From Salinivirgaceae bacterium (lineage in GTDB: Bacteria; Bacteroidota; Bacteroidia; Bacteroidales; SZUA-534), in the NCBI GenBank assembly GCA_041664345.1, contig JBAYKX010000001.1, positions 138,628 to 202,627 on the forward strand: DNA of 64,000 nt, in the 5' to 3' direction. How positions within the stretch are numbered: position 1 is the first letter of the stretch; each line of letters starts with the position of its first letter. Both the position numbers and the translations under genes were made by a program. The notes under the pieces were generated by a model. It did not search any database. It was not told the DNA's origin and saw only the letters and a program-made list of their open reading frames with translations. This document shows, one piece after another, positions 4,855 to 46,500 of this stretch.

Positions 4855-5228
4855 AATGAAACGATTAAACATGTATGTTAATCAAAGGATTTTATTTATC
4901 AAAAATAAGAAATTATTGAATAGAAAAGTAGGAAGATTTTAAAAAAGGCAGTTCTTTTTTTTCGTGTTATCATCCTTGATGTTAGTTGCTACCATAATTG
5001 GCTATTGAAACGAAAACAAACCACTTCACAAAAGGCTATTCAAAGTATAAAAGATGCTGTTTTTGATTGTAACAAACTCTCAATATACCGTCTGCAATTT
5101 TCAATTCCTAATACCCAAATTGAGCGATTTGCTATCGCAAATCTGCTCAATCGACTAAGAAATTGTAAGCAATTCACTTTTATACTATTCACCTGTATTT
5201 TGAATTGCAACAATTTCTAGGTCGGGGT

Positions 5229-9177: not shown

Positions 9178-10035
9178 ATGGAATCAGTATATGAAATATC
9201 AGGTGTAAGCAGACAAGGCTATTTTCAGGAAAAAAAGCGGGGCATGCAAAAAGAATCCATTCTGGAACGGACACAAGAAATGGTTCTACAAGTGCGGGCA
9301 GATCACCCCAAAATAGCGGCCAGGCCAATGCACTATATGCTTAATATTGATATGATGGGGATTAATAAGTTTGAGGAGTTAATCTCAAGTTTAGGCCTGG
9401 GGATAAAACGCAAAAAGCTATGGATAAAAACGACAAACAGCAACCACAATTACCGTACCTATGGCAACCTGGTAAATGGGATAGTGTTGGACGGAATAAA
9501 CCAATTATGGGTGAGCGATATAACATACCTCATAATGCAAGAAAAGGTATACTACATCATTTTCATCCAGGATGTATACAGCAGGGCAATTTTGGGATAT
9601 TCGGCAAGTGATAATATGTACACAATCAACAATATATGGACATTGAAGATGGCATTAAAAAGCAGGGGTACAAAGGCTATACCGGGGTTAATCCACCATT
9701 CGGATAAAGGCAGTCAATATTGTTCCAATGAGTACATAAAATTGATGAAAAGTTCGGGCATGAACATAAGTATGGCATCCAATAGTCTCGAAAACCCTTA
9801 TGCAGAAAGGCTAAATGGGACAGTAAAAAACGACTATCTTTTGGCATATGATAACAGTACTTTGAGCAAATTAAAAAAGTCATTGGATAGGGTGGTTTGG
9901 CTATACAATAACGAAAGGCCACATTCAGAACTTGGCTACTTATCGCCAGCCAAATATGAAGGCAAAATTGCAAATATGGCAATAGGGCAAAGGTATAAAA
10001 TGGAATTATATGATTTTAGGAAGGATTTGAAATAA
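9178..10035 (+). CDS. IS3-family transposase OrfB (DDE / rve integrase core)
   Basis: Shows WVSDITY, HHSDKGSQY and NPYAERLNGTVK, the DDE spacing typical of the rve fold. It is probably expressed as an OrfAB fusion. Confidence 0.9.
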   Translation: MESVYEISGVSRQGYFQEKKRGMQKESILERTQEMVLQVRADHPKIAARPMHYMLNIDMMGINKFEELISSLGLGIKRKKLWIKTTNSNHNYRTYGNLVNGIVLDGINQLWVSDITYLIMQEKVYYIIFIQDVYSRAILGYSASDNMYTINNIWTLKMALKSRGTKAIPGLIHHSDKGSQYCSNEYIKLMKSSGMNISMASNSLENPYAERLNGTVKNDYLLAYDNSTLSKLKKSLDRVVWLYNNERPHSELGYLSPAKYEGKIANMAIGQRYKMELYDFRKDLK

Positions 10036-13196: not shown

Positions 13197-14198
13197 TTAT
13201 TTCTTCTTTTTAGTTTCAATTTTTTTTATTGCTCTTTCAAAGTCACTTTCTGCAATCATTATTTGTTGAGAATCTTTAAACTTTTCAAATTCTCTTTCTG
13301 CATTTTCTTTTGCTAATTCGTGTGATATTGAACCGGCATTATTTAAAATATCCCTGTCGTTTAAACTTAAAAACCCGTTTAATTTTTCAACCCAAGCTTT
13401 CATGTACATTGGGATTCTTCTCATTGCCTGTCCTTGTGCAAAAATCAAATATTGCTCCACTAGATTATTCAGTGATGTTAACTCGTTTTCATTCAAATAA
13501 TTTTTGGCAATGGTAACATCTGTTTTTCTGATTTTATCACCACGCCATGAGGTTAATCCCATATTATGTTTTGAACTATCTACTCTCAGGTTAACTATTT
13601 CAGCAGCAGTTTGTCCTGTAATTGCCCAGTGTAATTTATTTTGTACAGTTTTGAAAAAATCAATACTGATATTCAACGTAGGGTCATAATCGACACTTGT
13701 TGCATAAATATCGGTTATTTTGCGATAAAATCGTTTCTCTGATGTTCGAATATCTTGTATTCGCCTTTCGAGTTCTTCGAAATAATCGAAAGGCAAATCC
13801 GGATTTTTCAACCGTTCATCATCTAATATAAATCCTTTAATAATATATTCTTTTATGTGAAGAGTTGCCCATTGCCTGAATTTTGTTGCTACGTGGGATT
13901 TAATTCGGTAACCAACTGATATAATGGCATCAAGGTTGTAGAATTTTTGTTTGCGTTTAACTTCCCTGTTTCCTTCTTTTTGAACTTGTAAGAAATCCTT
14001 ACAAGTTGCTTCTTCTTCCAATTCTCCCTCTTCAAATATGTTTTTAAGGTGAATGGTTATATTTTGCGAAGTTGTTTGAAACAATTCAGCCATTAACTTT
14101 TGAGTTAGCCAAACTGTTTCGTCCTGAAAACGAACATCTAATTTTGTTTCTCCGTTTTCGGTTTGATATATAATTAATTGGGATATATTTTCTTCCAT
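13197..14198 (-). CDS. RhuM-family virulence-associated protein
   Basis: Shows ETKLDVRFQDETVWLTQKLMAELFQTT, YNLDAIISVGYRIKSHVATKFRQWAT and DIRTSEKRFYRKITDIY, which is characteristic of RhuM. Confidence 0.8.
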   Translation of the reverse strand: MEENISQLIIYQTENGETKLDVRFQDETVWLTQKLMAELFQTTSQNITIHLKNIFEEGELEEEATCKDFLQVQKEGNREVKRKQKFYNLDAIISVGYRIKSHVATKFRQWATLHIKEYIIKGFILDDERLKNPDLPFDYFEELERRIQDIRTSEKRFYRKITDIYATSVDYDPTLNISIDFFKTVQNKLHWAITGQTAAEIVNLRVDSSKHNMGLTSWRGDKIRKTDVTIAKNYLNENELTSLNNLVEQYLIFAQGQAMRRIPMYMKAWVEKLNGFLSLNDRDILNNAGSISHELAKENAEREFEKFKDSQQIMIAESDFERAIKKIETKKKK

Positions 14199-14406: not shown

Positions 14407-15812
14407 CTACAACCTTTTAAGCGATTGGCGGATCAATCGCATGGCTTCATCGGCAGTCATTTTTCCCAAAAGTACATCGCGGTAATGGGTACTCAGGTTA
14501 TCGCTATTCCCAACCATGTATTGACTTACTACTTCGGTAAACCGATAGGTGTTTTTACCGTAATGGTTCTGAATGTAATAGGAGAATTCTTCGAATTGAT
14601 CGGATCCAAATGAAACATCGGTAAGTTTCCCTTTAATACCGGTTGGGCATTTGGTATATTGAACCCACATTTCCGCAATGTCAGGTGTATTCATGGCCAA
14701 TAAAAAATCGACGGCTTTATCTTTATTCGGTGAATTTTTTAATACAGCCCACATAATTTGGTAAGCTCCCGGATAGAGGTCAACACTTTTAAAAGTGGGG
14801 AATTCATTAGGAATGCAATTTTTGGTTTTTTGAGGATTTTCTCCTTCCCAAATATTGTACATCCAGGCGCCATTGCTATAGAGCAAACATTTTTCATTTA
14901 GTAAATCAAATCTCGAATCGCTCCACTTTACGTTTTCCAAATTAGGATCGCATGGGTTGTAGGCTGATATTTCTTCCAATACTTTCAATGTTTTTTGCCA
15001 TGCCAAGAGCTTTTTTTCAGTTATTTCAACGGTTAAAAGCTCCTTCGAATCTTTTAATTCCGAAACATACAATTGATAAGCTATAGCAAAAGCGGTTCTC
15101 CAATCAGTGGCATCGTGAATGGGTACAATTTGTTCCGATGGTTTTTTTTATTGTAAGCATCTACTGCTTTTACATAGCTAACAAAATCATTGGCTGTCAT
15201 GCCATATTGTTTTATATCGATACCTACTTTTTTTGCTACTTCGGAATTGCTCCAAAGAGCCCAATATTGTCCTTCAATAAACGGTCCTGGAATGATGCCT
15301 CCCCATCTGTTTTTTATCTCCTCAGATAAAAGCTGGGGTAATGTGTTTTTTCTGAATTCGGGAATGGTTGAAAAATCAACCAAATACTTTTTGGCCCATT
15401 CCTGGTCGTTGCTAAAATTGGCCACCTCTTCAAACTGGTCGTTTATTCTAATAATATCCCATTCCGGATTGGGTTCAACCATAATTTTGGATATAAACCG
15501 TTGATTGCTAAAAATATCAGTCCGATCAAAATAAATCTCTTCCGGAAATTTTAGTAATACGTTAACATCCTGATTTTCGAATTCATACTTGCGCACAAAA
15601 TCGCGTACCAGTTTCTCCCTTTTCCCTTCGTTTAACCATTGCCCTATAAACCTAACCTGCGAGGTAGGTTCTATTTTTCTGTAATCATCAGTGTTTGTCT
15701 TAGTTGTTGCCTCATTGGTACAACGGCTAAAAAGTAGCACACATATATAGGTGAGTAAAACAAACCGAATACTTTTTAATACTATATTCGAAATTTTATG
15801 GCTATTTGACAT
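14407..15812 (-). pseudogene. Extracellular solute-binding lipoprotein, split by a frameshift in an A8 run
   Basis: The N-terminal part starts at ATG 15812 (MSNSHKISNIVLKSIRFVLLTYICVLLFSRC, a lipobox) and stops at 15081. The C-terminal ORF (14407-15072) has a frame that is open back to the A8 tract (T8 on plus, 15142-15149). One extra A would read ..AYNKKKPSEQIVPIHDATDWRTAFAIAYQLYVSELKD.. as a single ~469-aa protein. Confidence 0.75.
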
Positions 15813-15837
15813 TATTGGTGGAAAGTGAATTTTTTTA

Positions 15838-16045
15838 TCCCTTTTACCCCTCTGTCTCCCGATCCCGAGTACTCGGGAGGGACAAATTGTCGACATATAC
15901 TCCCCCGAGTCCTCGGGGGCGTGAGACCGCCTTCGGCTAAGTTCCCCTGCAAGCAAGGGAGAATGCACTGATTGTGCGTTGCTGCCATATTTGTGATTTA
16001 GTGCAGCCCTACTCCCTCCTTTTACCAAAGGAGGGTTGGGGAGGA
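15838..16045. repeat. Patch of GC-rich palindromes between the sensor gene and the solute-binding gene
   Basis: Contains cccgagtactcggg (15864-15877), cccccgagtcctcggggg (15902-15919), gcactg..cagtgc-type arms and ccctcct-tttaccaa-aggaggg (16014-16035) followed by ttgggg. Confidence 0.7.
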
Positions 16046-16126
16046 TACTTTTTAATAAATTAAAACTTGTTTCCACACATTTTGTTGAATAATCAAATTT
16101 ATCCATTATGAAGAAAATTTCATGAT

Positions 16127-24978: not shown

Positions 24979-25286
24979 TTTTTAAAGAATAAAACCCGGC
25001 AAAGTTAGGTGTATTCCTCTTAAATTATTCGCCTCAATAAAAATAATTGTTTTTGTAACGGAGTTCTTATAACAAGCATACAATCTGTTTTCATCTAATA
25101 AATCAACAAATGCATACAAAAAGACCAATCTATTACTTATGCAAACGTTAACTTAAATTCATGGGAATTATTCGGAAAAGCCATTTTTCACTGATAGGAT
25201 AACGTAGGTTAATAATTTCGATTTAGTATTTATACAATTTGAATAGTTGTACTTTTGAATCATAAACTTATGATAAAACCTATTTT

Positions 25287-25628
25287 ATGATTAATCAAAC
25301 ACTTAGTATTCATGCAGCCCAACAGAAAGTGGATGAATGGATAAAAACCATCGGGGTGCGCTATTTTAGTGAATTAACCAATATGACTATACTAACCGAA
25401 GAAGTGGGTGAATTGGCGCGTATTATGGCCCGCACTTATGGCGACCAATCGTTTAAAGAGTCGGATTTGAAGGGCAACCTTGCCGATGAAATGGCTGATG
25501 TATTATGGGTTCTAATATGTTTGGCAAATCAAACCGGGGTGAATTTAACCGACGCTTTTTTAAAAAACATAGAGAAGAAAACCCTCCGCGATGGAGAAAG
25601 ACACCGGAATAATATCAAACTTCAATAA
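25287..25628 (+). CDS. MazG-type nucleotide pyrophosphohydrolase domain protein
   Basis: 113 aa with LTEEVGELARI and LADEMADVLWVLICLAN, the EExxE plus ExxD helices. Confidence 0.75.
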   Translation: MINQTLSIHAAQQKVDEWIKTIGVRYFSELTNMTILTEEVGELARIMARTYGDQSFKESDLKGNLADEMADVLWVLICLANQTGVNLTDAFLKNIEKKTLRDGERHRNNIKLQ

Positions 25629-25636
25629 AAAGAAAA

Positions 25637-25668
25637 ACCAGCCTGTTTTTTGGTAATAGGCTGATTTT
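25637..25668. terminator. Possible shared terminator between convergent genes
   Basis: cagcct (25639-25644) pairs with aggctg (25658-25663). It has a U-rich loop, an A-run on the left flank and a T-run on the right. The stem is weak. Confidence 0.35.
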
Positions 25669-25767
25669 GTATGATGATTTATGGAAATACTAGCATTTTA
25701 ATTGGCTAGGCCACATTTACTTTTATCTTCGAAAAATATTCAGTTAACCCTACTCCGTTTTTCCTGA

Positions 25768-26547
25768 TTAATAATTTCCTTGAGCCTTTGCTCCTGTTAT
25801 AACGGCAACACTTGAGCCGCAGCCAATTCTGCTGGCACCAGCTTGTATCAAAGCAATTGCTTGATTGTATTCTTTAATCCCTCCGCTCGCTTTAACTCCT
25901 ATTTTTGGCCCTACAATACGCCGCATTAGCATAATATCGGCAACTGTTGCTCCGCCACCGCTAAATCCTGTGCTGGTTTTCACAAAGTCGGCTTCTGCTT
26001 TTTTTGCAATCTCACAGGCAATAACTTTCTCATCATCGGTCAACAGTACCGTTTCAATTATCACCTTTAAAATCGTGTTTTTCCTACAAACCCGTTTTAT
26101 TGCCCTGATATCCTCTTCAACTAATTTGTAATCCTTCGATTTTAGCGAACCTACATTAATTACCATATCCAATTCATTCGCCCCGGCTTCGATGGCATTA
26201 CTTGCTTCAAATGCCTTACTGCGGCTATCCATAGCACCTAAAGGAAACCCAATCACGGCACAAATTTTTATTCCTGAACCCCGTAGTTTTTTTGTGACAT
26301 AAGGAACCCAGCTTGAATTTACACAAACCGAATAAAATTTGTATTGCACTGCTTCATCGCAAAGTTTGTCGAATTGAGCTTTTGTAGCATCGGGCTTTAA
26401 TAAGGTGTGGTCAATGAACCCTGCCAATTCTGACTGTGAAATAAACGGTCCGGAATGAGAATTCGATTCCTGTTGAACCTTCTTTATCCCTTCCAACCGG
26501 GACATTACCTCTTGAGTAATTTTGTCAACTAATTCTTTATGATCCAT
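25768..26547 (-). CDS. deoC: Deoxyribose-phosphate aldolase (DERA) with an N-terminal ~40-aa extension
   Basis: The core aligns well with what I recall of Bacillus-type DeoC: IDHTLLKPDAT, VCVN, VIGFPLG, DMVIN, FVKTSTGF (Schiff-base Lys) and VKASGGI. Residues 1-~41 are additional. Confidence 0.9.
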   Translation of the reverse strand: MDHKELVDKITQEVMSRLEGIKKVQQESNSHSGPFISQSELAGFIDHTLLKPDATKAQFDKLCDEAVQYKFYSVCVNSSWVPYVTKKLRGSGIKICAVIGFPLGAMDSRSKAFEASNAIEAGANELDMVINVGSLKSKDYKLVEEDIRAIKRVCRKNTILKVIIETVLLTDDEKVIACEIAKKAEADFVKTSTGFSGGGATVADIMLMRRIVGPKIGVKASGGIKEYNQAIALIQAGASRIGCGSSVAVITGAKAQGNY

Positions 26548-26554
26548 GTTTTTG

Positions 26555-27031
26555 TTACAATTTTTCTATTGACATCATTTTATTAATCCTTGGCCAATGC
26601 CTTCCACCTTCAAACCTTGTTTTAAGCCACAATTTCGACATAGAACAAAGTTCATCCATAGTATGTTGTGCAGTCCCCAAAGTTAACACATTGGCACAAT
26701 TATGTTCACGGCTGTTCAAAATAGTTTTTGGGCTCCAGCATAATGCCGCCCTGATACCATTTACTTTATTACAAACCATGCAAGAGCCAATTCCGGCAGC
26801 ATCGAGCATAATCCCACGCTCACACTCGCCGGTAACCACTTTACGTGCAACCGCCAATGCAAAATCGGGATAATCAACCTTTATTGTGCTGTTATTGGTT
26901 CCTACATCAATCACTTTATAACCAATCAACTGAAGATAGGACTTTATGGTTTCTTTTGCCTCGTAAGAGCCATGATCAGCGCCAATGGCTACTCTCCGGA
27001 CCTGATCATGCGTGTTAGCATTTTCGCTCAT
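26555..27031 (-). CDS. RpiB/LacA/LacB-family sugar-phosphate isomerase-like protein
   Basis: 158 aa with VAIGADHGS, DYPDFA, GIRAALC, REHNCANVL and GGRH. The motif at the expected catalytic Cys reads GIMLDAAGIG. Confidence 0.8.
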   Translation of the reverse strand: MSENANTHDQVRRVAIGADHGSYEAKETIKSYLQLIGYKVIDVGTNNSTIKVDYPDFALAVARKVVTGECERGIMLDAAGIGSCMVCNKVNGIRAALCWSPKTILNSREHNCANVLTLGTAQHTMDELCSMSKLWLKTRFEGGRHWPRINKMMSIEKL

Positions 27032-27056
27032 TTATTTCAATTTACATTATAATTTT

Positions 27057-27326
27057 TCAACCAGCAATCTGATCCACAATTCCTACAATCACGGTTTTAA
27101 CAGTTAATGAGTCTGGTTCATTTAATATGGTGCGGGCTGAGTTCCCTTCATCTAAAACCAAAACAATATCTCCAACTCCTGCTTGCACTGCATCAATCGC
27201 CAACAAAGATTTTCCAATCAGGTTCCCATTGGTATCGATAGGTTGTACTATCAAAATCTTTTTCGATTCATAGCCTTTGGCTTTAATGGTGGAAACTACA
27301 TTTCCTATAATTTTCGCTAATATCAT
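27057..27326 (-). CDS. BMC-P pentameric vertex protein (EutN/CcmL family), copy 4
   Basis: MILAKIIGNVVSTIKA..KILIVQP..AIDAVQAGVGDIVLV..GNSAR..VIVGIVD. The ATGA start overlaps the upstream stop. Confidence 0.88.
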   Translation of the reverse strand: MILAKIIGNVVSTIKAKGYESKKILIVQPIDTNGNLIGKSLLAIDAVQAGVGDIVLVLDEGNSARTILNEPDSLTVKTVIVGIVDQIAG

Positions 27327-27598
27327 TTTCCCTCCTCAACCAGCATTTCATCAATAATTCCCATTATGGCAGTATCGCAGGGGTTCATTATAGTTTCAAT
27401 AACACGGCTCGCTTCGCGGCTTGTTTCATAATATACAAATTCACCGATGCCGCATTGTATGGTATCTGCCACAACAATAGGATCGCCCACATTTGCCATT
27501 TTTTCATCCAACGGTTGCAGCAAGAGAAGTTTTACCCCTACCAACGATTCCACTTTTACGGTACTAACAACCCTCCCCAAAACTTTGCCAAATTTCAT
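27323..27598 (-). CDS. BMC-P pentameric vertex protein (EutN/CcmL family), copy 3
   Basis: MKFGKVLGRVVSTVKV..KLLLLQP..VADTIQCGIGEFV..AIMGIIDE. I prefer the ATG at 27598 because the track start at 27640 would overlap the AldDH 3' end. Confidence 0.85.
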   Translation of the reverse strand: MKFGKVLGRVVSTVKVESLVGVKLLLLQPLDEKMANVGDPIVVADTIQCGIGEFVYYETSREASRVIETIMNPCDTAIMGIIDEMLVEEGK

Positions 27599-27606
27599 GG
27601 TTGCAA

Positions 27607-29022
27607 TTATATAATTCTGAAATAATCGACCAACGTACAACGCCGTTCCCTACTGAAAGTGCGGGCACGGGTAACTCCTTCGCCTGTTGGGCTCGCAATG
27701 GTAAAAGATGCAAAACCCGCGCCACCAAAACCCAATCCGGCATAGCTGGGTCCGTTTTTAATAAAAATGGAGCAGTTCATCCTTTTGGCCATTTTACTCA
27801 ATTTAGCAATATTTAACGAATGCATAATGGCGGTATGCCGGAATCCATGTTCACAAGCTACCGCAAGATCGATGGCCGCATCCACATCCGATATGCGGAC
27901 AATGGGCATTACAGGCATGAGCTGCTCAGTCCAGACTAAAGGGTGTTCTCTTCCCACTTCGCAAATCAACAATCGTGTGGAAGCAGGAACCGTTATTCCA
28001 ATTTCTTGGGCAATAAAGTCAGCATTTTTCCCCACATATTTTTTGTTTGCAGCTCCTTCGTGTCCAGGTCGTCCAGCATCTGAAATTATCAGTTCCGTAA
28101 TCTTTTTTATTTGATCTCCGTTTAGTTCAAAGGCTCCGTTCTTCTTCATCTCCTCCTTTAATCTATCGGCCACTGATGCAACTACCAACACTTCTTTTTC
28201 GCAAATGCAAATTACATTGTTATCGAAACTTGCGCCATCAACTATGTCTTTACCGGCTTTTGCAATATCCGCTGTTTCATCAACAACCACCGGAGGATTC
28301 CCCGGTCCTGCTGCAATCACTTTTTTTCCGCTGTTCATGGCAACATTCACATCCGCCGGTCCGCCTGTTACTACAAGAATAGCAATTTTCTTGTGAGCCA
28401 TCAATTCTTTTGCCGATTCAATGGTTGGTTCATCAATGCAAGTCAATAAGTTTTCAGGCCCACCAACTTCTATGATTGCTTCATTTAACAGTTTAACCAA
28501 AAAGCAGGAAACTTTTTTAGCAGAAGGATGCGGATTAAAAACAACCGCATTACCGGCAGCTATCATACCTATGGAATTGCTAATAATGGTAGCTGTTGGA
28601 TTCGTGCTGGGTGTTATGGAACCAATGACACCATAGGGTGCATTTTCGACCAAAGTGAACCCATGGTCGTCTGAAAAAGCTTCAGGAACAATATCTTCGG
28701 CCCCCGGTGTTTTATTAATAGCCAATTCATTTTTGAGCATTTTATCTTGCCAACGCCCCATTCCGGTTTCTTCACTGGCCATTTTTGATAAAAGTTCATT
28801 GTTTGTCAATGAAACTTTTCTCATGTTTGCAATAATCTCCTTGCGTGTTTCAAGGCTTAGCTGAACAAACTCCTTATAAGCTAAATCGGAAGCATTAACC
28901 GCACTATCTAAATTCGAAAATATTCCTGCTCTCCCGCTCCCGGTCTCTTTTACAGGATTTAAATTCATGCCATTGAGGACCTCTTCAACTAGCTGGCGTA
29001 TATTTTGTTCTAAATTATCCAA
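27607..29022 (-). CDS. Acylating (CoA-dependent) aldehyde dehydrogenase, EutE/PduP-like
   Basis: 471 aa. The catalytic-Cys context is FDNNVICICEKEVLVV, with GGPA..V and GPGNPP also present. The N-terminus is an amphipathic helix, LEQNIRQLVEEVLNGM. Confidence 0.9.
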   Translation of the reverse strand: MDNLEQNIRQLVEEVLNGMNLNPVKETGSGRAGIFSNLDSAVNASDLAYKEFVQLSLETRKEIIANMRKVSLTNNELLSKMASEETGMGRWQDKMLKNELAINKTPGAEDIVPEAFSDDHGFTLVENAPYGVIGSITPSTNPTATIISNSIGMIAAGNAVVFNPHPSAKKVSCFLVKLLNEAIIEVGGPENLLTCIDEPTIESAKELMAHKKIAILVVTGGPADVNVAMNSGKKVIAAGPGNPPVVVDETADIAKAGKDIVDGASFDNNVICICEKEVLVVASVADRLKEEMKKNGAFELNGDQIKKITELIISDAGRPGHEGAANKKYVGKNADFIAQEIGITVPASTRLLICEVGREHPLVWTEQLMPVMPIVRISDVDAAIDLAVACEHGFRHTAIMHSLNIAKLSKMAKRMNCSIFIKNGPSYAGLGFGGAGFASFTIASPTGEGVTRARTFSRERRCTLVDYFRII

Positions 29023-29037
29023 TGGGTTTTCCTCCTA

Positions 29038-29589
29038 TTACATAAAAAATGGTTTTGTTTCTTTATGAGGCTGTGGAATAATGGTATCCATGCACCACAA
29101 ATTTTTTTCTTTGGCTACAGCAGTCCCTGCTTCCATGGCTGTTTCAATCGCATCGAGGCTTCCTATCATCTTTACATACGATTTTCCACCAAATCCCACG
29201 GCAAGCCTGATTTCAATAATAGTAACCCCACCCCTTTTTGCTGCTTTATCGGCCGCCTCAATACTTGAAACCACTGACAACGTTTCTGTTATTCCAATGG
29301 AATCCCAAATATCTGTTTTAATAATTTTACCAATGGCTGGAACTACAGAAGGATGTATCATGGGAAGGAATAAGGAGTCAACAATCCGGTCTTTTCCAAT
29401 TTCAAATCCTTTGTGGAATGAATACTCCACCGATGCCACATCACCAGTAAAAACAATTAGATATTTTCCGGGACATATAGTTTTGGCTTCAATAATTTCA
29501 ATGGGTGCCAATTTTACCATTTCGTCGAGGGCTTTCATCCCCAGTGCCATGCTACTAAACTCCAATACACCTAAAACGGTCAATTCCAT
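29038..29589 (-). CDS. PduT-like tandem-domain BMC-T shell protein
   Basis: 183 aa with two BMC domains: LGVLEFSSMALGMKALDEMVK.. and IGITETLSVVSSIEAADKAAK... KTICPGKYLIVFTGDV matches the PduT Fe-S Cys context. Confidence 0.85.
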   Translation of the reverse strand: MELTVLGVLEFSSMALGMKALDEMVKLAPIEIIEAKTICPGKYLIVFTGDVASVEYSFHKGFEIGKDRIVDSLFLPMIHPSVVPAIGKIIKTDIWDSIGITETLSVVSSIEAADKAAKRGGVTIIEIRLAVGFGGKSYVKMIGSLDAIETAMEAGTAVAKEKNLWCMDTIIPQPHKETKPFFM

Positions 29590-29596
29590 GTCGTGG

Positions 29597-29884
29597 TTAT
29601 TTCTTGTACACTATGGTCTCATTATCATCTATCAGGTCAATAATGCCCACAATTAAAGCATCAACTGGCTTATTTACAGTACCGGGAGTTTCTCTGGCCG
29701 AAGTGCTTTCAGAAACAAAAACCAGTTCATCGTAACCCGCACCAACAATATCGAGAGCTACTAAATAGTCGCCTTTTTTATCGCCACGTTGATTTGTCTT
29801 TTCCACCAACAAATACCTAGCACCTTGAATGTTTATGCTATTTGAGCTACTAACCACTGTTCCAACAACTCTACCTATCACCAT
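29597..29884 (-). CDS. BMC-P pentameric vertex protein (EutN/CcmL family), copy 2
   Basis: MVIGRVVGTVVSS..YLLVEK..ALDIVGAGYDELVFV..STSAR..LIVGIIDLI. Confidence 0.88.
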   Translation of the reverse strand: MVIGRVVGTVVSSSNSINIQGARYLLVEKTNQRGDKKGDYLVALDIVGAGYDELVFVSESTSARETPGTVNKPVDALIVGIIDLIDDNETIVYKK

Positions 29885-29897
29885 ACATGTTCAACTA

Positions 29898-30191
29898 TTA
29901 GTTCTTTTGGTATGTAAAACTGCCATCTTTTTCAATAAAATCAACAATTGCAATCACAGCCGAATCGGTAGGTTTTCCATCGGTTGCTTCGGTAAACCGC
30001 GCACTGCTGCCCGATACATAAAACACAATTTCCCCAACACCCGCTCCAACACTGTCCATAGAAACAACAAAATCGTTTTTCCCTTGTAAGGTTACCGGAT
30101 CTATTTTCTCTAGCAGAAGGAGTTTGATTCCCTCAATTTTTTGTGCTTTTTGGCTCGAAACAACGGTACCAACAACTCTTGCTAAAATCAT
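29898..30191 (-). CDS. BMC-P pentameric vertex protein (EutN/CcmL family), copy 1
   Basis: MILARVVGTVVSSQKA..KLLLLEK..SMDSVGAGVGEIVFY..GSSAR..AVIAIVDFI. Confidence 0.88.
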   Translation of the reverse strand: MILARVVGTVVSSQKAQKIEGIKLLLLEKIDPVTLQGKNDFVVSMDSVGAGVGEIVFYVSGSSARFTEATDGKPTDSAVIAIVDFIEKDGSFTYQKN

Positions 30192-30311
30192 AATTTAATT
30201 TTTATTCTGGATAAGGAAATGCTTTTTTGAGTTTGATATAGAGGAGAAAAGACTAATTCTGTTTTAATAAACACCAGAATCGATTTTTAAATTTATCCTT
30301 ATTTCACTTTT

Positions 30312-30602
30312 CTACTTCCTACCTAAAGGCAAAGCACTATCCACATTGTTATGCGGACGTGGGATTACATGCGATGATACAATTTCGCCCACTCTTTCAG
30401 CGGCTTTAATACCGGCATCAACAGCAGCTCTTACGGAGGCCACATCACCCCGAACAATAGCCGTTACATAACCACCGCCAATTTTTTCATAACCCACCAA
30501 TTCTACTTTTGCGGCTTTAAGCATTGCATCCGAAGCTTCTACCAAAGCGGTAAAACCTCTTGTCTCAATCATTCCTAAAGCATCCGTTTTTATTTCTGAC
30601 AT
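30312..30602 (-). CDS. BMC-H hexameric shell protein (Pfam00936 type), paralog 2
   Basis: [74 protein letters not shown]. Confidence 0.93.
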
Positions 30603-30636
30603 TCTATGATTCTCCTATTTTAATTAGTTATTTCTT

Positions 30637-31257
30637 TTAATATTCTTCTCTTCCGGTAATTTCAGCCAAGCGTTTTTCAACCGTCTTTTTACATTCTAAA
30701 ACTTCTGCTTCGGAACCTCCAATATAAACCCTGCCAAATTTACCGAAACCAATTACCTCAATAATGTTAATGCGCGCCGATTTTTCGGCTTCGTTTGCCG
30801 CATAATAAGCATATCCAGCAGGCTCCACTTCAAGAATGAATAAGGTGTCGCCCCGTAAAAGCATCGATCCATGACGAGTCCTGTTTATCAATTGAGCATG
30901 ATGATCCTCAATGTTTTTGATTAATTGGCTTGTCAAAATCCTGGGTTTAATTCTTTGATTCTCCGTTTGATCAATTGCTTTTAACACAGCTTCTCCGGCC
31001 ATGCGGGTGTCGCCTTGGCTGCTTGAATGTACTTCGAGCATTCCATAAGCCCTTTCTACTATTTGCATTCCAGGAGTAACGTTAGTAGCTTTTAAGGCCA
31101 CATCGGTCAATGTATTAATTTCAATACCCGGCGCAATCTCAATAATGCAACATGTTTGACCCCCAACAGGTAAATATCCACGGGAAACCGTTGATAAATA
31201 GGAGGCCATTTGCAACTGCAATGAATCTAAAAAAATATAAGTTCTTAAATCTACCAT
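30637..31257 (-). CDS. Tandem-domain BMC-T shell protein of the CcmP/CsoS1D-like (double-stacking) class
   Basis: 206 aa. LRTYIFLDSLQLQMASYLSTVSRGYLPVGGQ..IEIAPGIEINTLTDVALKAT..VERAYGMLEVHS.. then LFILEVEPAGYAYYAANEAEKSA..FGRVYIGGSEAEV. It closely resembles my recollection of the Haliangium BMC-T2/T3 sequences. Confidence 0.7.
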   Translation of the reverse strand: MVDLRTYIFLDSLQLQMASYLSTVSRGYLPVGGQTCCIIEIAPGIEINTLTDVALKATNVTPGMQIVERAYGMLEVHSSSQGDTRMAGEAVLKAIDQTENQRIKPRILTSQLIKNIEDHHAQLINRTRHGSMLLRGDTLFILEVEPAGYAYYAANEAEKSARINIIEVIGFGKFGRVYIGGSEAEVLECKKTVEKRLAEITGREEY

Positions 31258-31259
31258 GA

Positions 31260-31568
31260 CTATTTTCCTTTCTTAGTTATTTTCGCACCTAATGGCAGGG
31301 CGCTATCAACATTTTCATGAGGCCTTGGGATTACATGAGTAGATACTATTTCACCCACTTTTTCACCCGCCTTAACACCAGCATCAACAGCAGCTCGCAC
31401 GGAGGCTACATCGCCACGCACAATGGCTGTAACATAGCCGCCACCAATCTTTTCATACCCAATTAGTTCAACTCTAGATGCTTTTACCATAGCATCGGCA
31501 GCTTCAACCATAGCTACAAAACCCCGGGTTTCTATCATTCCCAAAGCTTTCATTTCAATATCTTCCAT
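31260..31568 (-). CDS. BMC-H hexameric shell protein, paralog 1 (first gene of the operon)
   Basis: [76 protein letters not shown]. The start may be the ATG at 31553. It is highly similar to paralog 2, by eye roughly four-fifths or more of protein positions. Confidence 0.93.
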
Positions 31569-32277
31569 AAAAATTCTCCTTTTATAAAAATTTGTAAATA
31601 CGTTACTATGTCCTTAATGAGAGCGTTTAAAAAGCTAGTGTAAAATTAGAAACTATTTTGAATAAACAATATACCCTTTTTTATGAACGTAATGACTCCT
31701 AAATGTTTAGCTAATTAAACACGTTAAAACTAAGCCAATAGTACCCATTACCTTAAAAATCCAAATTAATACAAACTCCTTACTTGCAATATCCCTCTAT
31801 TGAGGGTTCATCAATTATTAAAATGTAAACAAAATTAAGTATTATATTTGGATTACAATACTGAATTCTATCTTAATATTAGTCTTTTTCACTATTTTTA
31901 ACATCTATTAAAAAACTACCGGATTGAGATTCGCCTTTTTTAAAGTATTTTTTAAAATATTATAGTTAGATTTATTTCCCTTCTAAAAAACACATCACCA
32001 ATAACATAAATCCAAAACCAGTATGAATGAAGCTGTCATTCGTTTTAGGTTCGACCATGAATTTACTGGACATTTTACTATCACAAATTAATAACAGAAA
32101 AGTGGTGCACTAAACTAATTGAATCAAATGTAAGGACAATTTTGATACGATCCGTAATTACGAAAGATTGACGGGCTGTAATAGCAATAAAGCCATTTTT
32201 ATTAACTATTAACCAAAGTAACATTTCAACAAACAATCACTTGCTGAAAAACCACTATTATTTTAAAGGGATTTTGC

Positions 32278-32285
32278 TAATTTTG
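32278..32285 (+). promoter_or_regulatory. Candidate Bacteroidota -7 promoter box (TAnnTTTG) for tyrS
   Basis: taattttg lies 32 nt upstream of the tyrS ATG. This rests on a motif match only. Confidence 0.35.
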
Positions 32286-32316
32286 CCATCCTGAAAACGA
32301 ATAAAATACTCACAAT

Positions 32317-33608
32317 ATGATTTTTACAGAAGAACTGAAATGGCGGGGAATGTTGCACGATGTGATGCCCGGAACCGATGAGCAATTGGCTAAGGAAATG
32401 ACATTGGCTTATGTAGGATTTGATCCAACGGCTGATTCGTTGCATATTGGAAGTCTTGCTCCAATCATTTTATTGAAAAGGTTTCAATTAGCTGGCCATA
32501 AACCCATTGCTTTGGTGGGCGGAGCTACCGGTATGATTGGCGACCCATCGGGAAAATCGCAGGAACGGAACCTCCTGAATGAAGAAACGCTGCAAAAAAA
32601 TCTGGATGGTATAAAAAACCAATTGAGTAAGTTCATCGATTTTGAATCGGATGCTCCCAATAAAGCCTTGATGGTGAATAATTACGACTGGATGAAGGAA
32701 CAAACCTTTCTATCGTTTATCCGCGATATTGGCAAGCATATTACCGTAAATTATATGATGGCCAAAGATTCGGTTAAAAAACGGTTGAGTTCCGATTCCA
32801 ACAGCGGCATGTCGTTTACTGAATTTACTTACCAGTTGGTGCAAGGATACGATTTTTACTGGCTTTACGCGAATATGGGCTGCAAACTCCAAATGGGCGG
32901 CAGCGACCAATGGGGAAACATTACCACGGGAACCGAACTTATCCGCCGTAAAACAGGTGGTGAGGCGTTTGCCTTAACCATTCCGCTCATTACCAAATCG
33001 GATGGCGGAAAATTCGGAAAAACCGAATCGGGCAATGTTTGGCTCGACCCCGATAAAACATCACCGTACAGTTTTTATCAGTTTTGGCTCAACACCAGCG
33101 ACGAAGACGCTGAAAAATTCATTAAAATTTTCACCTTTCTGATAAACCGACTATTGATAGCATGATTGCCAAACACCGTGAAGCACCGCATTTGCGTGAA
33201 TTGCAGCGCACACTGGCACATGAAGTAACCGTAATGGTTCATTCACAAGCCGATTACGATTCTGCTGTGGAAGCTTCGGAAATCCTTTTTGGGAAAGCTA
33301 CCAGCGAAGCCCTTGCAAAAATTGACGAGCGGACTTTTTTAGCGGTTTTCGAAGGAGTTCCGACGTTCGACATCAATAAAAGCGATCTGACAAACGGTGT
33401 TTCCATTGTTGACCTGCTGACCGATTTAGCACCCGTTTTCCCTTCGAAAGGGGAACTGCGCCGGCTATTGAGCGGTGGAGGGGTCAGCATCAATAAAGAT
33501 AAAATTGAAAGTGCCGACTTGAAAGTTACCTCCGAAATGTTGATTAACGGCAAATACCTGCTCATTCAAAAAGGTAAAAAGAATTACTTTTTGATAACGG
33601 CAAAATAG
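32317..33608 (+). pseudogene. tyrS: Tyrosine--tRNA ligase, reading frame broken by an apparent 1-nt deletion near 33141 (possibly a sequencing error)
   Basis: HIGS (HIGH) and KFGKT (KMSKS) motifs lie in ORF 32317-33165. The C-terminal S4-like domain is in ORF 33162-33608. Frame 0 is open from 33126 and reads [22 protein letters not shown] directly after ..KIFTFL once one base is restored (ctgGataaa). Confidence 0.85.
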
Positions 33609-40557: not shown

Positions 40558-43500
40558 TTACTGTTTAACTATTTTAAAATATTTTGTTTTGCTTCCGGAG
40601 GTTACTTCTATAAACAAGATTCCTTGGGGCAATCCGGAAATATCAATGGTTGTTTGTTGCTCGTTAAAGTGCTCCATTTTAACAATTTTCCCGGTTAAGT
40701 CACGGAGGGAAACCCGAGCTTCCGAATTATCCGAGGGTTTCGAAATGGTAATGAATGTTGTTGTCGGATTTGGGAATATTGAAATACCGCCGGATACTTC
40801 CAGCATTTTGGCAATGCCATACCGGTTGGGTTCATTTTGGATATGTATTTCATAACTAGCCACCGGTACTACAAAATCTTGGCCTATAAGGTCAAATGTG
40901 ACGCTTACCAGTTCAACTTCTTGCTTAATAATAGGTTCATCCAACATTCCGATGCTGATTTCAAAAAATCCCGGTTCGGTATAATCGGTCACTAAACTCA
41001 TAGCCGGGTGCAAAGCATTCAATAAAACGTCCTGTTTTACAAAGCGCAATAATTTACTGTTGTATTGAAGCACTAGTTTGTTACTGAAAAAATTACCATT
41101 TCCTTTCAGTATATATTTGAGGGTAACTGTATTCGTTTTTCGATTCACGGTTGGGATGCATTCCATATACCAATCCTGAAGGGATTCATTATGAGATGCA
41201 ATAAGAGTTGGATTCCCGGACTTATTGGTATTGTAAAAATCCCACAACATCCCAAAGATCATCAAATCTTCGAAATTGAAGGCGTTATCGGGTATAACCG
41301 TGAATTCGGGAGCATTCCCAATCGCTGGACCCATTTCAAGTAATGGGTTTTCAGCTCTCCAATTAATAATCACCGAATCTAAATCGGTGATATCAATTTG
41401 AGTATCGCCGTTATAATCAGCAAGTGTTGGCAATACTACCAATAAGGAAATTAATTTATCGGTTATTTTTAAATTGTTCTTGGAAAAATTAAAATAGCCG
41501 GGTTTATTTAGATTAACTCCATAGGTTCCCGGGGGCAAGCGGAATGGGCCAATAATACCAGAGGTTGGGGTTTTTCCAGTTAAAATTTGGTTGGGGTTTA
41601 TAATGTAATTTACATCGGAAATACCCACCTTATTAAAATCGGTAACGGTAATTTGCAAGGCACTGTTGGTTACAACAAACTGCTGTTCTGCAGACCATTC
41701 ACTGCCGAGCCATCCATTATCTATGGCTTGCACACTCCAATAATAGGTTCCCGGTTCCAAATTGTTCAGTAGGAACGAGGTCCCCAGTTGTGCATTTCCC
41801 AACGCCGGTTTGGTTAACTTACCGGTATTCAACGCAGCCGGACTCACTATATCGAAACCATCGGATGTAGAACCTACCTTTATATTATAGGATAAAGAAC
41901 CTGCAACAGTATCAGTGGCTATATTCCATGCTAAAGTTGCTTTATCAAAATCAACGGAATTGGTCATATTGGCCGGAGTGCTGGGTGGAAAATTAAAAAC
42001 CGTGCTGTTGTTGCGATATATTTTTGAAAATGGTTTGACCCCATCTTCACCTGTTATCAGTAGATCGATATCGCCATCATTATCAAAATCGGCAACATCC
42101 ATAGAACCATTTTGAACTCCAACCAATGAAATATCCGACTGTTCGGTAAAGGTGGAATTGCCATTGTTTTTGTAAATTTTGGCTATAATGGAGTTACTAT
42201 CCCATCCCGAGAATAAAATATCTAGAAGTCCATCGTTATTAAAGTCAAGCCAACGAACAGAACCCTCGGCAACCCACGGCAATTCCAAATTACTTGCTTC
42301 TGAGAATAGGTTGTTCCCTTCGTTTTTGAAGATTTTTGTTTTATTGGTTACCCCATCTGTACCAACCAGAATAATATCTAAATCATTATCGTTGTCATAG
42401 TCGCCCCAAGCTAACGAACGTGGATCGATTCCATTAATACTGGAATTTGGATGCAACGTAAAGTCACCAGTTCCATCGTTTAGGTATAAGTTGGTTTTAT
42501 AACCTGATTCATAATGGCCAATCAAGAACACATCCAAATCGTTGTCGTTATCAAAGTCAATCCAGGTTGCCTGACCAGAATGCATCCCTTCGAACACAAA
42601 ATCGGTTTTCTCTGAAAAGGTATTATTGCCGTTGTTTTTATATATTTTTGAAATCTGACCCGAACTCATAAATCCCGAAAGTAAAATATCCAAATCACCG
42701 TCGTTATCATAGTCCCCCCATTGGGTAGAGCCTCCGGATACTTCAGTTAAGAGTATCTGGTTTTGTATGCTAAACGTGTTATTCCCATTGTTTTTATAAA
42801 TGGCAGCCAAGTCGGAAGTTCCATTATTTCCCGTTATAAGGATATCTAAATAGCTGTCGTTGTTGTAATCGCCCCATGATGCGTTACTGGATTGAATACC
42901 CGGTAGCGAAATAGCGGTTGGTTCAAAAATCATCTCCCCCTTGTTTTGATATATTTTTGCGATGCTGGAAGTTCCGTCGAATCCGGTAATTGCAAAATCC
43001 ATATTGCCATCGTTGTCGTAATCGGCTGCTGCAATGGCCCCATTTTTAACTCCTGTTACATCGGCATTCATATCGGTAAAATAGCTTGAAATAGTGCCTT
43101 CAACTGTGTTCGATGGTTCACTTTCCAAACGAAGGGTATCCATAGCTGTAACCCTAAAGTAATATAATGAATTGCTATTTAATCCAGTTACAATTTTCAT
43201 CGTATCAGTGATGGAAGTTTTCGAAGAATCAATCAATTCAAGAACGGTAGCTTCGGTACCCATATAAATGAGGTATTTAAGGAAGTCAGATTCAGTATTC
43301 TGCTGCCATTTTAAGGATACCCCGCAAAGGCTAACTGAAGCGGTTAGATTTATGGGAGCTGCCGGAGCTGCGTTTGGAATCGCTTTAGCGGTATTACTTG
43401 TGCCACTTTCTAAATTTAAGGTGTCAATGGCCGAAACCCTGAAATAGTAAACCGCATTGTTGGTTAGTCCGGTGATTGTTTTAGTAACATCGGTATTAGA

Positions 43501-46500
43501 AGCTGAGGTTGAATCATTTAAAATCATGGTTACCGAATCGGAACCCATATAAATCATGTACTTTAAGAAATCAGATTCCGAATTCTGACTCCAAGTTAGC
43601 GTGATTTGATGGTTGCCTGAAACGGCCAAAAGATTTGCCGGGGCTTCTGGTGCTGCATTGGGTATAGCTTCCACGGCATTACTGGGTTCACTTTCCGAAC
43701 GCAGGTTATCCATGGAGGTAATCCTAAAATAGTAACGGAGGTTGTTGGTTAATCCACTTATTACGATGCTGGTATCGGCTAATGAAACTGAGGTTGAATC
43801 CTTTAATTCCATGGTTACCGAATCGGAACCCACGTAAATCCGGTATTTCAGAAAATCGGGTTCCGTGTTTTGATTCCATTTCAAGGTAACCTGACCATTG
43901 CCCGATTGGGCGGTTAGATTTTTAGGGGCAGCCGGAAATTCATTGGGTATTACTTTTACCGCATAACTTTTTACGCTCTCTAACCGATTTGTATCCATTG
44001 CCGTAACTCTAAAATAATAAGGAATATTATTGGTTAATCCTTGCATCAATTTAGAAGTATCGGCTATTGAAACCGAAGATGAATCCTTTAATATCATGGT
44101 TACCGAATCGGTGCCCATATAAATGCGGTATTTCAAAAAATCGGGTTCCTGGTTCTGATTCCAAAGCAACAGAGCCTGACCGTTACCTGCTTTTGTTGTA
44201 AGTCCTGATGGTGTGTTGGGCGCAGGCCATCCTCCAACACAATACTGTGCCAGCATTTCGGATTCCGAAAGAGCACAGGAATATATCCGAATATCGTCAA
44301 TTATACCATTCCAAAAATATCCCCCTGAATTCACGCCATCGTTGGAATTGCAACCAATATATAATTTGCCCTGATCTAAAATTTCATCGGTATATGAATG
44401 AGTGTCTATTAAGGCGCCATTGATGTAACATCTCAAATTGGTGCCATCGAAGGTCACTCCCACATGCATCCATGTATCATAAGGAAAATCAAAGGAAACA
44501 TCCCGAATAGCGCCTTGATTGTAAATTCGGATTAGTTTATTGGTAACACTGTACATCATTCCGTAGCCTGAGGTATTCCCATAATCCAAAAAGAAGGTAT
44601 GCCAATCGGAGGCAGCAGCATTCGCATATAGATTAAACCAACCGCTGAATGTGGCTGTCGTCAGTAAATCATAGTTATGAACATTGTATAAATAATCGTC
44701 GGTACCATTAAACACAAAGGCACTGTTTATTATACCAAACCGATCGGAGGCATGGGAAATAAAATTGCCCGTTGAAGCATGGTTTCCATAACCACTTTCA
44801 TCGTTCAGGCTTACATTATTAAACGGGTAATATGCCAAAAGCGAAGGATCATTCACTACCCTTACGCTTACCTCATTGCTGTAATCGCTTTCAAGCCCAA
44901 CATTATTAACGGCTGTAATGCGGAAATAGTAGGTAACCCCGTTGGTTAATCCGGTGATGGTTTTGGAGGTGTCGGTTGCTCCATTTGTGGTTGAATCCAT
45001 TTTGGATGTGGGATTGGCCGATGTTCCCCCATAAATACGGTAGCGCAAAAAGTTAGATTCTGTATTTTGATTCCATTGCAGTGAGACTTGTTTATCGGCA
45101 GCTGTGGCCTTAAGGTTGGTTGGGGCATCGGGCAATTGCTCATAAGCAAAAGCCCCCATATCGTTGGTGCTGCCATCGGTATCGTTATAAACCGCCGATG
45201 GATCGCCAGCATCAATAGCCGGGGAACCTGGCAGCAATCGGAAATCACGATTGGTTGCATTTTTAAATAGAGGGTTCACTGAAATATCGCCATTTCCCGG
45301 GTTTGTATCAAAACCGGTATAACTGTAGGTATTTCCATAAACACAATTGTAGGAACGTACCGAAGCATCGTAGGAATTGGTGCTAACGCCAAAAGAAGTG
45401 TTACAGAAAATATTGTTTTTAATAACCGGTGTGCCTGTCCCTGAGTTAATGTCGATGGCCACAGAACCTCCGTAAACCGTATTGTTTATTACCTTTGCCC
45501 CTCCATAAAGTTCAATATTGTTTGCCATTGTGGCTGTTAAGTTCTGAAATACATTCCGGGTCAATACTGAACCATTATAAAGTTTTACTACGGCATCGCT
45601 GGTACTGCTTCCCCCATTAAAAACAAATCCATCAATAGAGGAACCTTTGGTATCATTAAGAACTACAGTGCTTACCCCATTTAAGGTGGTTTTATTTTGA
45701 AAAATATTCCGGTTGTTTTCGGTGAAGGTTCCGTCGTAACCTCCTCGCAATATCACATTGGTTAAGGTATTCAGATACTGACTGTACGAACCGGCTGCTA
45801 CTTTGACGGTATCGCCGGAAACGGATTTGTTTAGTGCGGTTTGAATGTATCGTAAAGGAGAATCGGAGGTTCCAGAATTTGCATCGTTTCCGGTAGTTGC
45901 CACATGAATTACTCCAGGGGTTGTAGTAAATGTGTACGATGAGGAGAACAGCCCATCGCCTATCGTGACCGATGCACGTACCCTCCAGTAATACGTTGTG
46001 TTATTCGTTAAATTGGGTATATCGACTAAAGTGTCGGTGAGTGTTGAGTTTTCATGGATCATCGCTGTAGCAAATGTAGGATCGGTACTCAACTGAATAT
46101 GATACGTATTAACTTCGGGCAGCGAATACCATTTGAATGTGATACTCAATGGTTGATGGGTTGCATTGTTTGCCGGAAGTGCCAGCGTTGGTGCATCCGG
46201 TAGAGGTGGTAAATAGGGTGAATGTTTTGTTCCGCCATAAGCACCCATATCAATGCGGGAGGTTTGGTAAGTTTCAGCACCGGGTGAATCGTTAGGATCG
46301 CCTGCATCAACGGAAGGCGAATTTTCAAGAATCCGGAAATCGTAATTGGCAGCATCCCTGAAAAGAGGCTCTAACGAAATATCGCCAGTACCCGGGTTTT
46401 GATCGGTGCTGGAGTAGTCCATTATACTTGCAAATACATTGTTGTAGGTACGAACGGCAGCAGTAAAATAGTACGTGTTCATTCCATAGTTACCCCCTTT

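Follow-up and report, generated by a model that had tools for sequence, protein, structure and literature searches.

An intact eleven-gene operon of the catalogued SPU2 microcompartment subtype in an uncultured Salinivirgaceae bacterium

We analyzed a 64,000-nucleotide stretch of DNA from a Salinivirgaceae bacterium (GenBank assembly GCA_041664345.1, contig JBAYKX010000001.1, positions 138,628 to 202,627 of the forward strand), which we call the window, and characterized the bacterial microcompartment (BMC) operon that lies on its minus strand at positions 25768 to 31568. The operon is almost certainly an intact member of SPU2, a catalogued subtype of the sugar-phosphate-utilization (SPU) BMCs, in an uncultured Bacteroidales-type bacterium. 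We consider it very probable that this assignment and the catabolic mechanism proposed below hold together, in which a deoxyribose-phosphate aldolase (DERA) and a coenzyme A (CoA)-acylating aldehyde dehydrogenase (AldDH) would act inside the shell.

The open reading frame (ORF) listing for 25768 to 31568 shows eleven co-directional genes in about 5.8 kb, without accessory enzymes. In transcriptional order, they start with a BMC-H, the major hexamer shell protein (H1, 102 aa, 31260 to 31568; PF00936, E = 7.5e-32), a CcmP-like stacking pseudohexamer with a gated pore (BMC-Tdp, 206 aa, 30637 to 31257; NCBIfam CcmP, 284 bits), and another BMC-H (H2, 96 aa, 30312 to 30602; PF00936, E = 2.7e-32). 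Two BMC-P pentamer vertex proteins follow (P1, 97 aa, 29898 to 30191; PF03319, E = 5e-24; and P2, 95 aa, 29597 to 29884; PF03319, E = 2.7e-24), and then a PduT-like tandem-domain trimer (BMC-Ts, 183 aa, 29038 to 29589) with PF00936 in both domains (E = 5e-35). The acylating AldDH (471 aa, TTG start, 27607 to 29022) belongs to the EutE/PduP-type subfamily (PRK15398, 681 bits). Behind it are two more BMC-P genes (P3, 91 aa, 27323 to 27598; PF03319, E = 6e-24; and P4, 89 aa, 27057 to 27326; PF03319, E = 5.6e-23), an RpiB/LacAB-family protein (158 aa, 26555 to 27031; PF02502, 155 bits), and the SPU signature enzyme DERA (259 aa, 25768 to 26547), which matches PF01791 and, over residues 41 to 250, TIGR00126 deoC with 286 bits (equivalog cutoff, 117 bits). 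The start of P3 is most likely the ATG at 27598 (MKFGK...) instead of the TTG at 27640, since the PF03319 match begins at residue 15 of the longer ORF and the public gene call is 91 aa long. A preliminary description made from the sequence had proposed all eleven assignments, and strong Pfam and NCBIfam hidden Markov model (HMM) matches confirmed each of them; the shell and enzyme ORFs matched PF00936, PF03319, PF02502, and PF01791, and the AldDH was recognized through PRK15398.

Intergenic gaps in the operon measured 2 to 26 nt, except for 34 nt between the Tdp and H2 genes and 120 nt between the H2 and P1 genes. Over 26 to 32 kb, the GC skew had strongly negative values, consistent with a run of genes that all lie on the minus strand. 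The GC content of the operon (0.37 to 0.41) equaled that of the rest of the window and thus gave no hint of a recent foreign origin.

We scanned the GTDB species-representative genomes with the AldDH, which found 108 relatives, and compared all eleven window proteins by tblastn with the best 80 of these loci (L001 to L080). The order H-Tdp-H-P-P-Ts-AldDH-P-P-RPI-DERA, in which RPI is the RpiB-like protein, was identical in 36 of the 80 loci, and most of the remaining loci either had the same order cut at a contig end or differed by one gene. The locus of Bacteroidetes bacterium GWF2_33_38 (L030) has the identical 11-gene order, with 66 to 83% protein identity. Trees from the Sutter 2021 BMC catalogue (PMC8217296) label its Ts (A2W98_02440) "dullYellow_SPU2," its P (A2W98_02445) "kermit, spu2like," and its Tdp (A2W98_02460) "petrol, ccmP-like," and mark all three as "bmcType=SPU2 (main)." The spacing of the A2W98 locus tags agrees with the gene order in the window. 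We therefore base SPU2 membership on the full synteny of the operon with L030, whose genes the catalogue itself labels SPU2. The two loci share the enzymes, the shell set, the gene order, the N-terminal AldDH peptide, and the phylum; we found no structural difference between them, and the operon comes from a different species-level lineage.

The properties of the operon agree with the published definition of the subtype. According to the catalogue (PMC8217296), SPU2 encodes as enzymes only AldDH, PF01791, and PF02502 proteins, usually without a phosphotransacetylase (PTAC), TPI, alcohol dehydrogenase (ADH), or PduS. Its shell has one or two BMC-H proteins, a CcmP-like Tdp, a Ts, and a BMC-P triplet (gray, orange, and green clades) plus an additional green-clade copy, and its AldDH bears an N-terminal encapsulation peptide. 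The operon has the features general to SPU loci, with a DERA that carries an N-terminal extension, an acylating AldDH, a PF02502 protein adjoining the DERA with a Cys-to-Asp replacement, and four BMC-P genes. It also has those particular to SPU2, namely the three-enzyme set, two similar BMC-H proteins, a CcmP-like Tdp, a PduT-type Ts with its cysteine, the AldDH peptide, and the synteny described above. The preliminary description had classed DERA-RpiB-AldDH loci as SPU type, and this proved right, with the SPU2 subtype matched feature for feature.

Members of Bacteroidota made up 48 of the 80 loci, all from metagenome-assembled genomes with 69 to 82% AldDH identity, and carriers included Bacteroidales, Lentimicrobiaceae, Prolixibacteraceae, Tenuifilaceae, and Salinivirgaceae. 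The loci from outside this phylum were mostly from Spirochaetota, Atribacterota, and Planctomycetota, with a few from other or unassigned lineages. The best AldDH identity to any GTDB representative was 82%, and the closest relative among the fetched loci was that of a Salinivirgaceae metagenome-assembled genome (L046). The catalogue assigns 53 loci to SPU2 and places the majority in Bacteroidetes and Spirochaetes, with others in Atribacteria and further candidate phyla (PMC8217296). The earlier remark that BMCs of any kind are uncommon in Bacteroidota does not hold for this type, given its mainly Bacteroidetes and Spirochaetes membership and its recovery from 48 Bacteroidota species-representative genomes. 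As a separate observation, among L042, L050, L053, L005, L017, and L045 there were duplicated Tdp-H modules or, in L042, a second, partial copy of the block formed by the first five shell genes.

The shell proteins of the operon have recognizable structural relatives. H1 and H2 are 81% identical, and each carries KAA.../PRPH motifs; the C-terminal BMC-H motif quoted in the preliminary description is present in both. The closest solved BMC-H structure is HO-5815 of Haliangium (140 bits). The Tdp matched CcmP (235 bits) and HO T3 (5v76, 232 bits) nearly equally among Protein Data Bank (PDB) structures. Its best NCBIfam match was CcmP with 284 bits, under the 340-bit equivalog cutoff, and the precomputed annotation reports PF27545 (CsoS1D_N). 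Its gate pair, Glu68-Arg69, is invariant in 63 of 63 orthologs. For the Ts, the PDB matches were 3nwg, 3pac, and 3n79 (PduT), with 130 to 141 bits, and Cys39 aligns with the Fe-S ligand Cys38 of PduT; structure 3n79 carries a Ser mutation at that PduT position. This pore cysteine was kept in 67 of 71 orthologs; the catalogue reports it in 80% of SPU2 loci, with PduS present in only a quarter (PMC8217296), and the operon, like about three-quarters of SPU2 loci, has no PduS. The four BMC-P paralogs are mutually 32 to 42% identical, P1 being 33 to 42% identical to the other three. P2 is orthologous by position to A2W98_02445, the SPU2 pentamer that the catalogue calls "kermit" (green clade), and is 68% identical to the 95-aa gene at the same position in L030. 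The number of BMC-P genes, four, is that of the SPU2 triplet plus the extra green copy, with P2 alone linked to a clade, by its position. None of the shell proteins in the operon reached the EutM, EutN, or PduT equivalog cutoffs.

We examined the enzymes for catalytic and targeting residues. The DERA has a 40-aa N-terminal extension relative to all solved DERAs, which align from residue 40, and relative to the deoC model. The extension consists of a conserved helix, ELVDKITQEVMSRL, with the consensus M-D/E-Q-N/K-E-L-I-D-K-I-T-K-E-V-M-x-R-L, followed by a variable low-complexity linker. Catalytic Asp127, Lys190 (the Schiff base residue), and Lys219 are invariant in 65 of 65 orthologs. Similarly, residues 1 to 28 of the AldDH precede the solved cores (PDB BMC AldDH 5jfl aligned from residue 29 with 497 bits), and they contain MDNLEQNIRQLVEEVL, a conserved helix whose hydrophobic moment is 0.65, and then a variable linker. 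The catalytic residue Cys272 is the same in all 81 sequences compared. As judged from their sequences, the N-terminal helices of both enzymes are predicted encapsulation-peptide features of the kind reported for SPU enzymes.

In the RpiB-like protein, the catalytic Cys of Clostridium thermocellum RpiB (3he8) is replaced by Asp77 and the neighboring Thr by Ala79. Both replacements are invariant in 71 of 71 orthologs from four phyla; Asp19/His20, His110/Asn111, and Arg148 are invariant or nearly so, and Arg144 is present in 69 of the 71. A Cys66-to-Asp replacement has been reported for all SPU RPIs (Dwyer, Sutter, and Kerfeld 2024, PMC11585597), and Asp77 is therefore a further mark of membership and not a new finding. 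The protein is conserved to the same degree as the AldDH and more than the DERA (76% versus 70% within Bacteroidota and 64% versus 56% across phyla). With a mere 12-residue N-terminal overhang and the end of the upstream gene 26 nt away, it has no room for an encapsulation peptide of its own.

From this inventory, we infer the substrate, the direction of flux, the encapsulation of the enzymes, and the exchange of cofactors. The two near-identical BMC-H hexamers would tile the shell, and the four divergent BMC-P pentamers would cap its vertices. The PduT-like trimer with its pore cysteine and the CcmP-like double-stacked trimer with its Glu-Arg gated pore would serve as larger conduits. The N-terminal amphipathic helices of the DERA and the acylating AldDH would direct these two enzymes into the lumen, and the peptide-less RpiB-like protein would probably be loaded piggyback, bound to the DERA. 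Deoxyribose-5-phosphate from DNA or deoxynucleoside breakdown would enter the shell, where the DERA would cleave it to glyceraldehyde-3-phosphate (G3P), which would exit, and acetaldehyde, which the AldDH would convert to acetyl-CoA with reduction of NAD+. Since the operon encodes no PTAC, ADH, or PduS, the gated Tdp pore presumably lets acetyl-CoA/CoA and NADH/NAD+ pass to and from the cytosol. Following the published SPU model, we regard this conversion of deoxyribose-5-phosphate to G3P and acetyl-CoA as reasonably likely.

Several points weigh against this picture of a catabolic SPU2 organelle. No SPU2 organelle has ever been seen or purified, and electron microscopy of Atribacter laminatus, the only organism with such a cluster in culture, revealed no BMCs. 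No pathway logic accounts for the RpiB-like protein, any scheme for recycling cofactors in the absence of PTAC, ADH, and PduS is conjecture, and the Fe-S pore cysteine of the Ts has no obvious partner within the operon. The shell color-clade labels come from orthologs in L030 and not from the catalogue's own HMMs. Finally, deoB, deoD, deoK, pta, and ack were absent among the annotated genes of the window, as were PTAC, TPI, Fe-ADH, and PduS; these negatives cover scanned ORFs of at least 150 aa across the 64 kb and public gene calls for 15768 to 36547.

The same genes allow other chemistry. In the reductive direction, the AldDH would reduce acetyl-CoA as a sink for NADH, and the DERA would condense acetaldehyde with G3P into a stored sugar phosphate. 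Nobu et al. 2016 (cited in PMC6281690) put forward such a reversed pathway for Atribacteria, and the orthologous Atribacterota loci are in the same family as the operon. Both enzymes are reversible, the lack of PTAC, ADH, and PduS leaves the oxidative direction without built-in NAD+ regeneration, and the organism looks anaerobic or fermentative, with fumarate reductase genes in the window. We nevertheless think this direction unlikely, because the catalogue authors and the 2024 biochemistry favor catabolism, cleavage activity has been measured for a DERA (that of SPU6), DeoR-type regulators beside orthologous loci suggest induction by a substrate, and stored deoxyribose-5-phosphate has no known use. 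A different sugar phosphate could also be the substrate, with the Asp-variant RpiB-like protein as an active isomerase and an aldehyde that may not be acetaldehyde. Dwyer et al. (PMC11585597) left this possibility open; the RpiB-like protein is as conserved as the AldDH and more so than the DERA, and its invariant Asp and intact binding residues exceed the needs of a pure scaffold. On the other hand, the SPU6 RPI is inactive on ribose-5-phosphate, the DERA active site is canonical with a deoC score far above the cutoff (286 versus 117 bits), and no candidate substrate is known; we judge this reading quite unlikely. That the RpiB-like variant is a working enzyme or sensor for an unrecognized sugar phosphate, or that the compartment is a reverse redox sink, is doubtful. 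If either were true, one of the most widespread BMC types would have a real chemistry that is yet to be discovered, and the operon, with its 11 genes, would offer a minimal system for that search.

The preliminary description had gone further and proposed an undescribed system, unusual for Bacteroidota. None of the Bacteroidota SPU2 loci is from an organism that has been cultured and studied, and only three publications within the literature searched name SPU2. Still, the operon matches SPU2 of the 2021 catalogue (PMC8217296) point for point, the membership of this subtype is mainly Bacteroidetes and Spirochaetes, and the gene order is that of a catalogued member, L030, so that a previously undescribed type is most improbable. 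The claim of novelty had been tied to the absence of synteny with a characterized BMC type widespread in Bacteroidota, and such synteny is essentially what we found, with the reservation that SPU2 is described only bioinformatically. The earlier statement that SPU loci are experimentally uncharacterized stands for SPU2 and falls for the enzymes of SPU6 (PMC11585597). The locus of this particular lineage is itself undescribed; its kind is known, catalogued, and partly characterized.

The preferred assignment, an SPU2 operon with a catabolic pathway, can be set beside the BMCs that it resembles. The SPU6 BMC of Chloroflexi is the only SPU with characterized enzymes (PMC11585597): its DERA acts on deoxyribose-5-phosphate and binds its RPI in a 1:1 complex, and the RPI showed no activity on ribose-5-phosphate. 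The operon shares with SPU6 a DERA with an N-terminal extension and a canonical active site, an RPI with the Cys66-to-Asp replacement, and an AldDH for the second step. The AldDH encapsulation peptide is C terminal in SPU6 and N terminal in the operon, however, and in SPU6 the RPI also bears an encapsulation peptide, along with a linker some 75 residues long, in place of the short overhang of the operon RPI. The SPU6 Tdp is from a different clade, and its BMC-H is of the pink clade. SPU subtypes without PTAC typically possess a Tdp (PMC11585597).

The earlier remark that the shell is Haliangium-like was correct, because HO-5815 is the closest solved BMC-H structure; the Tdp scored alike against CcmP and HO T3, and the catalogue (PMC8217296) notes that the HO and SPU shells are related. 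Among solved structures, the Haliangium ochraceum HO shell provides the nearest match to the BMC-H (HO-5815) and, alongside CcmP, to the Tdp (HO T3/T2), and multiple BMC-P paralogs occur in both systems. For the main HO loci, in contrast, the catalogue names an AldDH and a PF00596 class II aldolase instead of DERA and RPI; it reports PF01791 solely outside these loci, with some HO genomes carrying a DERA elsewhere, and makes no mention of PF02502. With DERA and RPI inside the operon and no class II aldolase, an HO-type BMC was ruled out. The Tdp fold and its Glu-Arg gate are common to CcmP of the beta-carboxysome and CsoS1D of the alpha-carboxysome, a type of protein thought to pass sugar phosphates or other large metabolites. 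The CcmP score was below the cutoff (284 < 340 bits), and the operon has no genes for RuBisCO, CcmM/N, or carbonic anhydrase, which rules out a beta-carboxysome. A PDU or EUT metabolosome was ruled out as well, with no PduCDE or EutBC in the locus or its flanks.

The flanks of the operon are ordinary Bacteroidota housekeeping genes. The gene tyrS lies divergently upstream, and downstream are a small convergent MazG gene followed by genes for Kup, a GH30 glycosidase, and an M24 peptidase. We clustered the ORFs within 6 kb of the locus in the 80 loci. The largest flanking family, a RecQ-like helicase, occurred in 14 of the 80 and reflects lineage synteny, and these 6-kb flanks contained no conserved accessory partner for the Bacteroidota loci. 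The flanks are thus not conserved across the 80 loci, and the cassette is self-contained. A DeoR-family regulator lies directly beside the locus in 10 genomes (L052, L055, L058, L060, L067, L068, L070, L072, L074, and L080), which are from Spirochaetota and Atribacterota, with none from Bacteroidota; these neighbors fit a deoxyribose or sugar-phosphate inducer. A PduL with an N-terminal extension follows the DERA in three Atribacterota loci (L052, L055, and L056) and in none of the Bacteroidota loci. The MazG-family nucleotide pyrophosphohydrolase (25287 to 25628, plus strand), which converges on the DERA gene, may have a link to deoxynucleotide catabolism. An ortholog borders the locus in 6 of the 80 loci, in two arrangements and usually with dtd, and from these counts and the company of dtd we judged that it is probably a case of lineage synteny and not a functional partner.

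We also searched for regulatory signals. At 25639 to 25663, a candidate bidirectional intrinsic terminator with a 9-bp stem and T runs on both strands likely marks the 3' end of the operon and would be shared with the convergent MazG gene. The promoter region at 31569 to 31840 (minus strand) contains, by motif scan, candidate Bacteroidota -7 elements TAATTTTA and TAATTTTG, which lie 80 and 269 nt upstream of the ATG, respectively. A sigma-70 promoter scan gave 21 matches versus 21.2 expected from shuffled sequence and was uninformative for Bacteroidota. A riboswitch or leader RNA was rejected after Rfam searches returned nothing at E ≤ 1 for 25000 to 33000 and nothing at the gathering threshold for the whole window. 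The sequence ahead of the first BMC-H gene was compared across 48 related loci; it shared no block with the window and was similar only between close relatives. Within the operon, the 120-nt gap between H2 and P1 (30192 to 30311, minus strand) contains a weak AT-rich hairpin (ATTCTG...CAGAAT) followed by a T-rich stretch, and this hairpin might attenuate transcription after the abundant shell genes.

Other features of the window lie outside the operon. The tyrS gene (32317 to 33608, plus strand) is present as two overlapping ORFs (282 and 148 aa) and is intact (430 aa) in a near-identical ENA metagenome contig (ERZ27249449 k141_1208821, 232 kb), to which the window corresponds. The window and this contig differ by 8 isolated single-nucleotide polymorphisms over 20.8 kb and then by an indel near 33142 (1 nt net, in tyrS), and the split is a strain variant, an assembly variant, or a sequencing error. 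Farther out lie genes for an insertion sequence integrase, RhuM, and fumarate reductase, along with a Zn-ADH/aminotransferase pair and genes for giant surface proteins. The integrase (rve family, 9178 to 10035, plus strand) and the RhuM-family gene (13197 to 14198, minus strand) are about 12 to 16 kb from the operon, and two ORFs near the RhuM gene (14407 to 16106) had no Pfam match. The seemingly ORF-free first 5 kb is explained by a giant ORF of at least 1,627 aa (1 to 4881, minus strand) that runs off the left edge of the window. This ORF and a second giant one (40558 to 49704, minus strand, 3,048 aa) presumably encode surface or adhesin-type proteins. The gene at 60436 to 61995 (minus strand) encodes a fusion of a response-regulator receiver with a PglZ domain.

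Conceptually, the locus adds nothing new. Its remaining interest lies in the SPU2 organelle itself and in the role of the RPI. As a clean and complete example, the operon is a possible construct for heterologous shell assembly and cargo loading, and it could help to show how a metabolosome operates when it has no CoA or NAD+ recycling of its own. In ecological terms, carriage of the operon means that this Bacteroidales lineage probably scavenges deoxyribose derived from DNA.

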